Source of the DNA: Escherichia coli | Lineage (GTDB): Bacteria > Pseudomonadota > Gammaproteobacteria > Enterobacterales > Enterobacteriaceae | Length of the DNA stretch: 64,000 nucleotides | Direction: 5' to 3' (one strand) | NCBI RefSeq assembly: GCF_003334405.1 | Contig: NZ_QOWM01000008.1 | In this document: positions 56,972-58,015 of the stretch, in pieces | How positions within the stretch are numbered: position 1 is the stretch's first letter | Layout: each line of letters opens with the position of its first letter | The notes under the pieces: model-generated | Told to the model about the DNA's origin: nothing | The model's database searches: none | Seen by the model: the letters and a program-made list of their open reading frames with translations, nothing else | Translations under genes and position numbers: made by a program

Positions 56972-57338
56972 GAAAAGTCCTTTTGAACATATAGGAATAT
57001 ATTAGAGCATGAATGTGTGCAATGCATAAAAGAAAAAGCTACCGCAAGGCGACTCCACCCACAGATAGCTCTTAATTGATTGTTTGTAAAAAATAATACA
57101 TTAATTATCTTCTGTGTAAAGAGGGAAACAGCCTTAGGGTAAGGGACACGAGTTGGGGGGATTGGTGAAATTTGCGTTGAGGATAAAACGATTTGCGGGA
57201 AAAGGATAGTTAAGTAGAATTGCTGCGGGTGCTTGAGGCTGTCTGCCTCGGGCATGAACACCAAAGGCAGATAGAGAAAAGCCCCAGTTAACATTACGCG
57301 TCCGGCAAGACGCTTAACATTAATCTGAGGCCACATCT

Positions 57339-57587
57339 ATGCTTTGCATACGTAGATTAGCCTCTTACCGACCAAAAGGTCAAGGAGAAGCAGGCTATGA
57401 AGCAGCAAAAGGCGATGTTAATCACCCTGATCGTCATCTGTTTAACCGTTATAGTGACGGTACTGGTAACGAGGAAAGACCTCTGCGAGGTACGAATCCG
57501 AACCGACCAGACGGAGGTCGCTGTCTTCACAGCTTACGAACTTGGGGAGTAAGAGGACCAGCGGGGAGAAATCCCCGCAACCTCTGA
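57339..57587 (+). CDS. mok-like overlapping reading frame of hok locus
   Basis: 82-codon ORF starting 58 nt upstream of hok in a different frame and overlapping it entirely. Confidence 0.4.
   Translation: MLCIRRLASYRPKGQGEAGYEAAKGDVNHPDRHLFNRYSDGTGNEERPLRGTNPNRPDGGRCLHSLRTWGVRGPAGRNPRNL
57397..57552 (+). CDS. hok: Hok/Gef-family type I toxin (51 aa)
   Basis: My translation MKQQKAMLITLIVICLTVIVTVLVTRKDLCEVRIRTDQTEVAVFTAYELGE; AAGGAG SD 7 nt upstream; not in the supplied ORF track as a separate entry. Confidence 0.8.
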   Translation: MKQQKAMLITLIVICLTVIVTVLVTRKDLCEVRIRTDQTEVAVFTAYELGE

Positions 57588-58015
57588 TGTATTATGCATC
57601 CTCAACGCAGCCACAGTTAACCTGATTGGCGGGTTTATTTCATCTGTAAATATTTTTATAAAAATAATGCCCACGCACAGCATAAAACAAAAAGTATTAC
57701 AGATAAAAAAGGAACGTAATGTGCAGATTTGTTGTTTTCCATATTTACTCACCTTAATATGATTAATCCTGATAGGGTTGTTATTTCAGCGGTTTTCAAA
57801 TGAGATATTATGGTGATCTGACAAATTTGCATAACATTAAAATTTAATTTGTTTAACCGCTTTTAATAATAAGCGTTGTTTGTATCCCAGCAATCTGTTG
57901 TTTGGTTTTTATTCCATTAAGGTGGGGGCTTTACACTGGAACCAGTTTATTTATACTTTATACGTCAGCCTGAACAACTGGCATCTGCTGCACTGCGCCA
58001 TCGAGAGATTGAGAA

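Follow-up and report, generated by a model that had tools for sequence, protein, structure and literature searches.

An apparently intact hok/mok/sok toxin-antitoxin module of the hokD/hokW subfamily in a Rac-type lambdoid prophage of Escherichia coli

Results

Identification of the module and its setting

We found that positions 57193-57645 of the window (the whole 64,000-nucleotide stretch of Escherichia coli DNA that was analyzed) very probably constitute a type I toxin-antitoxin module, hok/mok/sok, that is complete, belongs to the hokD/hokW subfamily, is carried as a small accessory ('moron') cassette in a Rac-type lambdoid prophage, and most likely acts in the manner of the R1 module. 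The first-pass annotation had called a type I hok/mok locus inside the prophage, and this call proved right in every structural respect that could be tested, namely the toxin family, the mok arrangement, the antisense gene with its promoter and terminator, and the long-range fold. The Rfam model RF01794 ('sok') matched 57227-57402 over its full length (model positions 1-157) with 105.2 bits versus a gathering score of 59 (E = 7.7e-23). Since this model is written in the hok-mRNA sense, the match falls on the + strand. The cassette was located in a full-length Rac-type lambdoid E. coli prophage, with the replication genes on one side of it and the nin region on the other, and hok lay on the same strand as the prophage early genes. 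Downstream of hok were lysis genes, terminase, and structural genes, and the host prophage looked complete. One strain that carries this prophage is E. coli 64.1 (NZ_CP059917). The window copy of hok/sok is apparently intact; no IS element, frameshift, deletion, or stop codon was found in the locus, and identical DNA was present in 10 complete RefSeq genomes from various hosts and countries. The search behind this count gave 11,076 places in 5,151 records, covering 4,729 of the 5,426 complete E. coli genomes. The sequence elements, their homology to tested loci, and predicted folds with covariation support are shown here; transcription, processing, toxicity, and biological role are inferred. 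The features of the locus were as follows.

57193-57220, + strand: predicted hok/mok mRNA promoter read from the sequence, with a weak -35 (TTGCGG, 57193-57198), a 16-nt spacer, and a -10 (TAGAAT, 57215-57220)
57227-57645, + strand: putative full-length hok mRNA, about 415 nt long, ending at the terminator; its +1 is placed at G57227, where the Rfam model also begins (position 1), through homology to the 5' end of R1
57227-57238, + strand: tac (translational activator element), GGGUGCUUGAGG, from its pairing in folds; nearly invariant in 63 relatives
57277-57347, - strand: putative Sok-like antisense RNA of 71 nt placed by sokW mapping, with a 15-nt single-stranded 5' tail (57347 to 57333), a long hairpin (57332 to 57281), and UUUU (57280 to 57277)
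57279-57286, + strand: ucb or anti-SD box, AAGCCCCA, from its pairing in folds
57327-57330, + strand: mok Shine-Dalgarno sequence GAGG, 8 nt ahead of the mok ATG, read from the sequence and conserved in relatives
57332-57352, no strand assigned: hypervariable patch of 21 nt covering the Sok 5' tail, its mRNA target, and mok codons 1-5 (nucleotide diversity 0.34)
57339-57587, + strand: mok, 82 codons, from the ORF list, in the +1 frame relative to hok
57354-57383, - strand: sok promoter assigned by homology, with -35 TTGACC (57383-57378), an 18-nt spacer, and -10 TAATCT (57359-57354)
57397-57552, + strand: hok, encoding a 51-aa Hok/Gef family toxin, from Pfam, likeness to K-12 HokD, and RefSeq annotation
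57535-57538, + strand: TACG at codon 47 (Tyr), read from the sequence; a candidate site for A-to-I editing of A57536 by TadA, which would change Tyr to Cys
57561-57578, + strand: 3' stem-loop GCGGGGA-GAAA-UCCCCGC, -15.2 kcal/mol, from the fold and compensatory changes
57600-57612, + strand: fbi (fold-back inhibitory element), CCUCAACGCAGCC, which pairs with tac
57619-57645, + strand: probable intrinsic terminator of the hok mRNA in a weak version, hairpin 57619-57635 followed by a U-rich tract, from a terminator scan

The toxin gene and the overlapping mok frame

The 51-codon Hok/Gef ORF reported earlier at 57397-57552 was present with its Shine-Dalgarno sequence, AGGAG at 57383-57387, 9 nt ahead of the ATG. 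Its product had the features of Hok/Gef membrane toxins: a size of about 50 aa, a TM helix in the N-terminal part, and the conserved C-terminal motif. It matched Pfam HOK_GEF (PF01848) over model positions 1-42 of 42 (E = 5.9e-21) and PHROG 251, 'MokW-like host killing' (E = 3.9e-30), and 46 of its 51 residues matched K-12 HokD. Relatives 90% identical to the window Hok were named HokD in RefSeq. The NCBIfam cut-offs were not reached for NF007279 (Hok subfamily; 43.7 versus 73 bits) or NF007290 (HokA equivalog; 40.0 versus 89). A placement outside the Hok family, which these sub-threshold scores might suggest, was rejected because both models describe other branches, and this is why the RefSeq product in the identical DNA is called merely 'Hok/Gef family protein' (WP_021554378.1). 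Nucleotide diversity was 0.013 across the hok coding sequence and 0.018 at its third codon positions. The TACG of the Tyr47 codon is a candidate editing site by analogy with hokC, hokD, and hokE, in which the edited site has the same motif and position (PMC5630033). In a survey, 42 of 45 Hok homologues were toxic in the assay used, HokD being among the toxic ones (bioRxiv 10.1101/2025.08.07.668861).

The overlapping 82-codon frame (57339-57587) that had been read as a mok arrangement was likewise found, with its own GAGG at 57327-57330, and it crossed the hok start. From the mok ATG to the hok ATG there are 58 nt, so that mok is in the +1 frame; the mok stop lies 35 nt past the hok stop, and the frame runs through the 3' hairpin. 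Among 74 distinct relatives the mok ATG was kept in 71, with varying frame and length. Just 3 had the window mok frame, and in 66 the offset was 57 nt, which made mok an in-frame 70-codon extension of Hok. The difference between the two offsets was due to one extra T near 57380. The mok of R1 has the same 58-nt offset and +1 frame as the window mok. Two other ORFs, one of 133 codons on the minus strand (56935-57336) overlapping the hok leader and one of 72 codons (57534-57752) overlapping the 3' UTR, were treated as chance ORFs because conservation in both regions tracks the RNA elements.

Promoters and predicted transcripts

The hok promoter was assigned by homology. Its -10 and +1 aligned with the TATGAT of the R1-type hok promoter region and the G that comes 6 nt after it, low entropy at 57215-57220 showed the -10 to be conserved among relatives, and the hok mRNA would start at G57227. 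A Sok-like promoter had been predicted on the minus strand around the mok start, and homology placed one inside the suggested bracket of 57300-57400, position-for-position homologous to the sokW, sokC, and sokB promoters. A generic sigma-70 scan listed neither of the two; the hok promoter was missed because of its weak -35, and the sok promoter because its -10 matches 3 of 6 consensus bases. The sole + strand match of that scan within the locus, at 57314-57343, was left unused and has no counterpart in known hok loci. The fold of the hok mRNA, modelled as an RNA beginning at 57217 (10 nt upstream of +1), had z = -6.0 versus shuffles. At the 3' end, the block conserved with plasmid and phage copies ended at about 57612-57637, and the terminator segment 57612-57650 was modelled at -7.2 kcal/mol versus -11.8 for the form that most relatives have, CCCGCUUCGGCGGG-UUUUU.

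The annotated sokW (AP000422.1) mapped exactly to 57347 to 57277. The putative window Sok has, by sequence homology, the features of a cis-antisense Sok RNA: a length of about 60-70 nt, a promoter and a terminator that belong to it, and complementarity to the mok start region. Its hairpin was modelled at -32 kcal/mol (z = -4.5). Compared to SokW, the 3' 54 nt were identical (54/54), whereas 7 of the first 16 nt, in the recognition tail, differed. The Sok body had a nucleotide diversity of 0.033, and the sok promoter one of 0.036. SokW itself was detected by Northern blot and acts as an antitoxin (PMC8621323), and the 'promoter-less' sokW mutant of that study (primers YO-421/422) replaced TAACCTA, the homologue of TAATCTA in the window.

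Predicted RNA switch and covariation

In the predicted fold of the full-length mRNA, tac and fbi closed the 5' and 3' ends through 10 pairs (57227-57237 with 57601-57612, P at least 0.986), and ucb (57281-57286) paired with the mok Shine-Dalgarno region (57326-57331). When the 3' end was truncated, the predicted partner of tac (57227-57234) became ucb (57279-57285), as judged by the minimum free energy partners, and the tac/ucb pairing also appeared in the nascent fold. The same change from tac/fbi to tac/ucb has been described for the R1 hok mRNA (PMC9841398). The GCCCC of ucb was the same throughout the 66 sequences of the alignment, among which were hokB, hokC, and the R1 type. Over these 66 sequences, 95.4% of cells were paired at the 64 modelled pairs, versus 40-48% with the partners slid, and double (compensatory) changes occurred at 11 pairs versus 3.1 in shuffles (0 of 500 shuffles reached 11). 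For tac/fbi, 99.5-100% of cells were paired in relatives; these pairs hardly vary and hence give no covariation evidence. The clade of the window has G57610 where most relatives have C, which creates a G.G mismatch with G57229 in tac/fbi, and the duplex was modelled at -17.4 kcal/mol versus -21.5 in Sp5.

The GC hairpin noted before at about 57563-57576 was recovered at 57561-57578 (-15.2 kcal/mol). Compensatory double changes were seen at 4 of its 7 pairs, and 97.8% of cells were paired in relatives. It has no U-tract, and a role as terminator was rejected on this ground. By analogy with the R1 3' hairpin (PMC9841398), from which the role is taken, it is likely the last stem-loop of the 3'-trimmed hok mRNA, acting as a stop for 3' exonucleolytic trimming and as a protective end.

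If the module acts as R1 does, the + strand promoter (-10 at 57215-57220) would produce a stable mRNA of about 415 nt, closed by pairing between tac (57227-57238) at the 5' end and fbi (57600-57612) at the 3' end. As long as the RNA stays closed, ucb (57279-57286) would hide the mok ribosome-binding site and translation of both mok and hok would be prevented. The slow loss of 3' nucleotides up to the hairpin at 57561-57578 would strip fbi and leave an RNA of about 355 nt, tac would then shift to ucb, the mok site would open, and ribosomes on mok crossing the hok start would permit Hok synthesis. Meanwhile, a constitutive minus-strand promoter (57383-57354) would supply the unstable 71-nt Sok (57347 to 57277), the 15-nt 5' tail and hairpin of which form a perfect complement of the mok start region. 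Pairing of Sok with the trimmed mRNA would block mok and lead to RNase III cleavage. Once Sok synthesis ends, through DNA loss, host transcription shut-off, or prophage induction as shown for hokW, the stable mRNA pool would give Hok, and the 51-aa toxin at the inner membrane would cause membrane collapse. The role may be selfish maintenance of the prophage segment, or help in lysis.

Comparison with known hok loci

The hok/sok systems are among the best-studied toxin-antitoxin systems, and the window locus was compared with known loci of this kind. The closest characterized one was hokW-mokW-sokW (VT2-Sakai/Sp5, 933W; AP000422.1), with 89% DNA identity over window 57170-57612, that is, from upstream of the promoter to fbi. 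The two loci have in common the promoter, tac, ucb, the mok Shine-Dalgarno sequence and ATG, the sok promoter, the Sok hairpin/terminator, the hok Shine-Dalgarno sequence, the 51-aa toxin, the 3' hairpin, and fbi, and the annotated starts and ends of mokW, hokW, and sokW map exactly to window positions 57339, 57397, 57552, 57347, and 57277. Both are in lambdoid prophages; however, hokW lies near one end of Sp5 and the window hok between replication and nin genes. Besides the Sok tail, they differ in mok (mokW is in frame with hokW, with a 57-nt offset and 70 codons; window mok is in the +1 frame, with 58 nt and 82 codons), in the C-terminus of the toxin (..FVDYESEK in HokW versus ..FTAYELGE), and by one mismatch in fbi. 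Experiments have established hokW-sokW as a pair of toxin and RNA antitoxin (PMC8621323).

K-12 hokD (relF), in the Qin prophage, was 91% identical in DNA to window 57383-57636 (from the hok Shine-Dalgarno sequence to the terminator). Both genes are in lambdoid prophages near nin-type genes, but in K-12 hokD the promoter, tac, ucb, the mok start, and the sok gene are absent, with relBE in their place. Of this subfamily, the window has the complete form and K-12 hokD/relF a truncated one.

R1 (parB) hok/mok/sok has the same architecture and predicted switch as the window, with tac/fbi, ucb over the mok Shine-Dalgarno sequence, tac/ucb after trimming, a 3' protective hairpin, and a cis-antisense Sok that spans the mok start (PMC9841398). 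The window Hok was about 40-45% identical to R1 Hok; HokW is 44% identical to it (PMC8621323). The 5' hairpin is shorter in the window, and mok has 82 codons in the window versus 70 in R1. Moreover, the window module is prophage-borne and the R1 module plasmid-borne, and post-segregational killing would not be an obvious role of a module in an integrated prophage.

For hokC/mokC/sokC (gef) and hokB/mokB/sokB of K-12, the leader and sok promoter could be aligned with the window (CCTTGACC...GGTAAGAGGC...), and the GCCCC ucb and GCCTCTTAC dcb boxes were invariant between these loci and the window. The extra T of the window, by which the -35 TTGACC is set, is also present in hokC. Overall DNA identity was about 75% or lower, and the two loci, unlike the window module, are not in prophages (hokC is flanked by IS186). 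At 57-59 nt, the sokC and sokB RNAs are shorter than the window Sok and have no counterpart of its long extended hairpin.

Discussion

The module type found here is already known, and its toxin gene is already annotated in RefSeq. The value for discovery is little, since the prophage enrichment of hok/sok has been surveyed and a close lambdoid homologue tested. The value is in annotation: the RefSeq records of the identical DNA list the hok CDS alone, to which mok, Sok, both promoters, and the regulatory RNA boxes are now added, and the window copy shows the complete form of the truncated K-12 hokD/relF locus.

None of our results contradicted the identification as hok/mok/sok. The case for full function of the window copy is weakened by the tac/fbi mismatch, the weak terminator, the mok frame, the promoters missed by the scan, the NCBIfam scores below cut-off, and the precedent of chromosomal loci.

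The foremost alternative concerns the role rather than the identity of the module, which may mainly aid the prophage's own lytic cycle: Sok would be lost on induction, Hok would harm the inner membrane, and lysis and release would be earlier or fuller. We consider this possible, with the odds somewhat against it. Such an effect was reported for hokW-sokW in Sp5, the closest characterized relative (89% DNA identity), where Sp5 release fell by half when hokW-sokW was deleted, and mitomycin C led to the appearance of HokW in a way that depended on RecA (PMC8621323). The complete appearance of the host prophage, with lysis, terminase, and structural genes downstream, is consistent with a lytic role, as is the orientation of hok on the early-gene strand, where early read-through could cross it. 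However, the effect in Sp5 was merely two-fold, hokW occupies a different place in its phage (near one end versus the replication/nin slot), and the modelled read-through transcript kept the mok Shine-Dalgarno sequence sequestered.

It is unlikely, in our estimate, that the window copy is decaying or has been silenced in the manner of the K-12 chromosomal hok loci, with recognizable elements and lost killing or regulation. Pointing that way are the tac/fbi G.G mismatch (-17.4 versus -21.5 kcal/mol), the weakened terminator (-7.2 versus -11.8 kcal/mol), and the 1-nt insertion that sets the mok frame apart from that of 66 of 74 relatives. Yet tac and fbi still pair (P at least 0.986), the +1 mok frame with the 58-nt offset is that of the functional R1 module, and hokC has the same extra T. 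On the side of decay, the K-12 member of this subfamily, hokD, is truncated, and the tested chromosomal hok loci gave no post-segregational killing (Pedersen and Gerdes 1999, as summarized in bioRxiv 10.1101/2025.08.07.668861); the window, by contrast, has all the elements and neither an IS insertion nor a deletion or stop codon, 10 complete genomes of various hosts and countries carry the identical allele, and 42 of 45 Hok homologues were toxic in the same survey.

That hok and the two minus-strand genes upstream of it (55488-56971) make up an anti-phage defence island, in which hok serves chiefly for abortive infection against superinfecting phages, is highly improbable. R1 hok/sok on a high-copy plasmid lowered T4 plating (according to the citation in PMC8621323), the neighbours are an AT-rich two-gene cassette including a membrane protein, and the same prophage has the other exclusion genes sieB and ralR; but transcription of the neighbours diverges from that of hok, with no operon in common, a PADLOC-DB search of Hok and the two neighbours gave no match at E <= 0.01, the neighbours had no Pfam match either, they lay beside hok in just 4 of 84 related loci, and hok occupied the same slot without them in at least 28. 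Moreover, hok was not enriched near defence systems (12% versus 9.4% expected) in a published survey (bioRxiv 10.1101/2025.08.07.668861). On these grounds, the two-gene cassette was rejected as a defence system or hok partner, and the meaningful link of hok with the neighbouring 'candidate defence operon' that the first-pass annotation had drawn found no support.

Beyond the R1-like module itself, two sequence elements were of interest. A 12-nt box at 57173-57184, upstream of the promoter and confined to the window's own clade, was perfectly complementary to fbi. It could capture fbi on read-through transcripts of the induced early operon, an idea weaker than the one proposed below for the hypervariable patch. 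The box as an activator of hok on read-through RNA was unsupported: in the model it takes fbi, yet the mok Shine-Dalgarno sequence stays on ucb.

The patch at 57332-57352 had 26 alleles in 194 loci. They formed about eight deeply divergent classes (6-14 differences in 28 nt) within otherwise near-identical hok/sok modules. We tentatively suggest, as a conjecture more apt to fail than to hold, that the patch is a specificity cassette, whose classes are kept or generated by selection against cross-protection of other prophages' hok mRNAs by Sok. Copies of hok/sok in the same genome gave no signal of avoiding a shared Sok-tail allele (2 of 18 pairs identical versus 2.06 expected), in a sample too small to speak against a modest effect. 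A YUNR U-turn motif in the Sok target loop was dropped from consideration, as the window has UUUG and other alleles lack the motif. Whatever maintains it, the patch is a natural data set for work on antisense RNA specificity, and if the cassette reading is true, the window carries a rare class, its allele being present in 3 of the 194 loci.

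The hok/mok/sok module and its relatives

The first-pass annotation had rightly observed a hok/mok type I toxin-antitoxin locus, and its main interpretation was right as well. Elements of this kind are ordinary and already catalogued; judged by its sequence, the locus is apparently intact, with minor allele-specific features. Its main elements are:

57383-57354, minus strand: sok promoter, placed by homology (-35 TTGACC 57383-57378; 18-nt spacer; -10 TAATCT 57359-57354)
57347 to 57277, minus strand: predicted Sok antisense RNA
57332-57352: hypervariable patch comprising the Sok single-stranded 5' tail, its mRNA target and mok codons 1-5
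57339-57587, plus strand: mok, 82-codon ORF overlapping hok
57397-57552, plus strand: hok, 51-codon ORF (ORF listing, Pfam, PHROG)
57535-57538, plus strand: TACG motif, the Tyr47 codon TAC plus G, read from the sequence
57561-57578, plus strand: 3' hairpin GCGGGGA-GAAA-UCCCCGC, from sequence and fold

The Hok/Gef ORF, the overlapping mok-like frame and the GC hairpin after hok were thus all present as first proposed. The Hok protein covered the entire Pfam HOK_GEF model (E 5.9e-21) and matched PHROG 251, "MokW-like host killing" (E 3.9e-30). The mok start lies 58 nt before the hok start; a single additional T near 57380 puts its 82 codons in the +1 frame and also yields the sok -35 TTGACC, as in sokC. 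R1 mok is arranged the same way (58-nt offset, +1 frame). We found the window's mok frame in only 3 of 74 distinct relatives, while 66 of the 74 have a 57-nt offset, with "Mok" there being an in-frame 70-codon Hok extension. This variation agrees with the published view that translation of mok counts, not the Mok protein (PMC9841398). TadA edits the hokC, hokD, and hokE mRNAs (A-to-I, Tyr to Cys), restoring a second cysteine (PMC5630033). The Tyr47 codon of the window's hok, together with its hard-coded Cys30, matches the arrangement of these edited mRNAs and by analogy marks a candidate editing site.

The closest annotated relative was mokW/hokW/sokW of phage VT2-Sakai (Sp5), with 89% DNA identity over 57170-57612. 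Its annotated ends mapped exactly onto the window (mokW start at 57339, hokW at 57397-57552, SokW from 57347 to 57277 on the minus strand), and the 7 differences between the window's Sok and SokW all fell within the first 16 nt, leaving the other 54 identical. HokW arrested growth and was neutralised by SokW, which was visible on Northern blots (PMC8621323). K-12 hokD (relF) shared only 57383-57636 with the window, from the hok SD through the terminator, with relBE in place of the promoter, tac, ucb, mok start and sok gene. Since K-12 hokD is without these 5' elements, the window shows the complete form of the hokD (relF) subfamily. A copy 90% identical to the E. coli locus was present in PP818812.1 (13172-13646; database match H59), whose recorded phage host, Actinobacillus pleuropneumoniae, is unexpected for a hokD-type module and may reflect host-to-host transfer or a mislabelled or contaminated record.

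The predicted Sok RNA and mRNA switch

The leader 57227-57402 matched Rfam RF01794 "sok" with 105 bits (gathering score 59). The match was on the plus strand because the model is written in hok-mRNA sense; it covers the antisense target of Sok and so cannot on its own place Sok on a strand. Sok was delimited by end-to-end correspondence with annotated SokW in the multiple alignment, and the same span, 57347-57277, was forecast independently from the hairpin, U-tract and promoter spacing. An antisense promoter had been expected on the minus strand near the mok start, and the site found there aligned with the sokW, sokC, and sokB promoters. Primers for the "promoter-less" sokW mutant replace TAACCTA (PMC8621323), the exact homologue of which in the window is TAATCTA.

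In the canonical model, tac/fbi pairing closes the full-length mRNA and ucb holds the mok SD; once the 3' end has been trimmed, tac shifts onto ucb, which frees the mok SD and lets Sok bind, with the trimmed RNA protected by the 3' stem-loop (PMC9841398). Homology to R1-type promoters (TAGAAT, 6 nt, then G) points to G57227 as the hok mRNA +1, coinciding with the Rfam model start. In the predicted fold of the full-length RNA (57227-57640), tac (57227-57237) paired with fbi (57601-57612) with P of at least 0.986, and 57281-57286 paired with the mok SD region (57326-57331). When the RNA ended at 57582, tac was predicted to pair with 57279-57285 instead. The fold of 57217-57640, starting 10 nt further upstream, had z = -6.0 versus shuffles.

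Covariation was measured in 66 sequences (63 hokD/W-type loci, hokC, hokB, and one R1-type plasmid locus). The 64 modelled pairs were paired in 95.4% of cases versus 40-48% with slid partners. Compensatory double changes occurred at 11 pairs, four of them in the 3' hairpin, versus 3.1 in shuffles, and 0 of 500 shuffles reached 11. Because the tac/fbi helix is almost invariant, its support comes from conservation and energy and not from covariation.

Allelic variation

The patch 57332-57352 had a nucleotide diversity of 0.34. By comparison, the values were 0.018 for hok third codon positions, 0.033 for Sok outside the patch, 0.036 for the sok promoter and 0.079 for the 3' UTR. A pattern scan of IMG/VR yielded 194 copies with 26 patch alleles in about eight deep classes, the window's allele being rare (3/194). 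It is plausible that this patch sets Sok specificity. Same-genome copies gave no sign of avoiding a shared allele (2 of 18 pairs identical versus 2.06 expected), a comparison with little power. Some viral contigs carried a pair of hok/sok leaders in the same orientation, separated by 1.4-2.5 kb (L147, 2884-2935 and 4254-4305; L165, 344-395 and 2826-2877; L126/L127, one contig); two of these had different Sok-tail alleles, and the third had one allele repeated.

At position 57610, in fbi, the window has G and most relatives C, and the resulting G.G mismatch weakens the tac/fbi duplex to -17.4 kcal/mol rather than -21.5. The terminator hairpin is a weakened form of the common CCCGCUUCGGCGGG-U5 type. 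Two related loci (L062 and L052, alignment A2) combined the window-type fbi and terminator with another Sok-tail allele and an in-frame mok, and these mosaics show that hok/sok modules recombine inside the 400-nt module. A perfect 12-nt inverted repeat links 57173-57184 (TGCGTTGAGGAT), upstream of the hok promoter and before its -35, with 57598-57609 (ATCCTCAACGCA); we estimate the chance expectation for such a match between these two stretches at ~0.001. The upstream box complements fbi better than tac does (-21.4 vs -17.4 kcal/mol), and in a read-through RNA model it takes fbi, with the mok SD still closed. It was found only in the window's clade, most relatives having a degenerate version. 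No IS element was found in the window's hok locus, and the allele-specific features disrupt no element.

Prophage setting

The 601 bases around the hok locus had 100% identical copies in ten complete RefSeq E. coli genomes. Around the identical DNA, strain 64.1 is annotated as ralR-recT-recE-racC-kilR-sieB-racR-ydaS/T/U/V, then DUF1627, DUF977, two hypothetical genes and "Hok/Gef family protein", and beyond it DUF1367, DUF1364, DUF1133, lysis genes, trkG and terminase. The host element is a full-length Rac-type lambdoid prophage, with hok between the replication module and the nin-like region. Two genes lie upstream of hok:

55488-56042, minus strand: upstream gene 1, ~30% GC
56039-56971, minus strand: upstream gene 2, ~30% GC

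These overlapping genes encode proteins of 184 aa, with several hydrophobic segments, and of 310 aa, both assigned to function-unknown PHROGs (15250, 15676), and a promoter-like site lies nearby at 57120-57093. Pfam and PADLOC searches gave no match for either protein. Of 84 related loci, only 4 have the cassette next to hok, and it is therefore a separate accessory insertion; in many of the others, hok fills this slot without the cassette and has DUF977 and/or NinB/DUF1364 as neighbours. In a recent survey, hok was enriched in prophages (23% vs 5% expected) and not enriched near defence systems (12% vs 9.4%; bioRxiv 10.1101/2025.08.07.668861). Given the rare co-occurrence, the cassette-free slots and the survey numbers, hok forms a small cassette of its own, located where accessory genes are known to accumulate. 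The first-pass link between hok and a neighbouring "defence operon" is therefore not supported. The role of the locus could be mainly to maintain the prophage segment, to aid lysis upon induction, as proposed for hokW (PMC8621323), or to exclude other phages.

An Rfam search of the window gave four other matches:

39048-39143: McaS
42521-42638: FnrS
46948-47126: RalA
60191-60377: STnc100-family sRNA

The order of McaS, FnrS, and RalA is typical for the E. coli chromosome adjoining the Rac prophage. RalA is the antitoxin RNA of the ralR/ralA type I system, carried by the same prophage as hok, and the STnc100-family match falls within the prophage as well, downstream of its nin-like genes.
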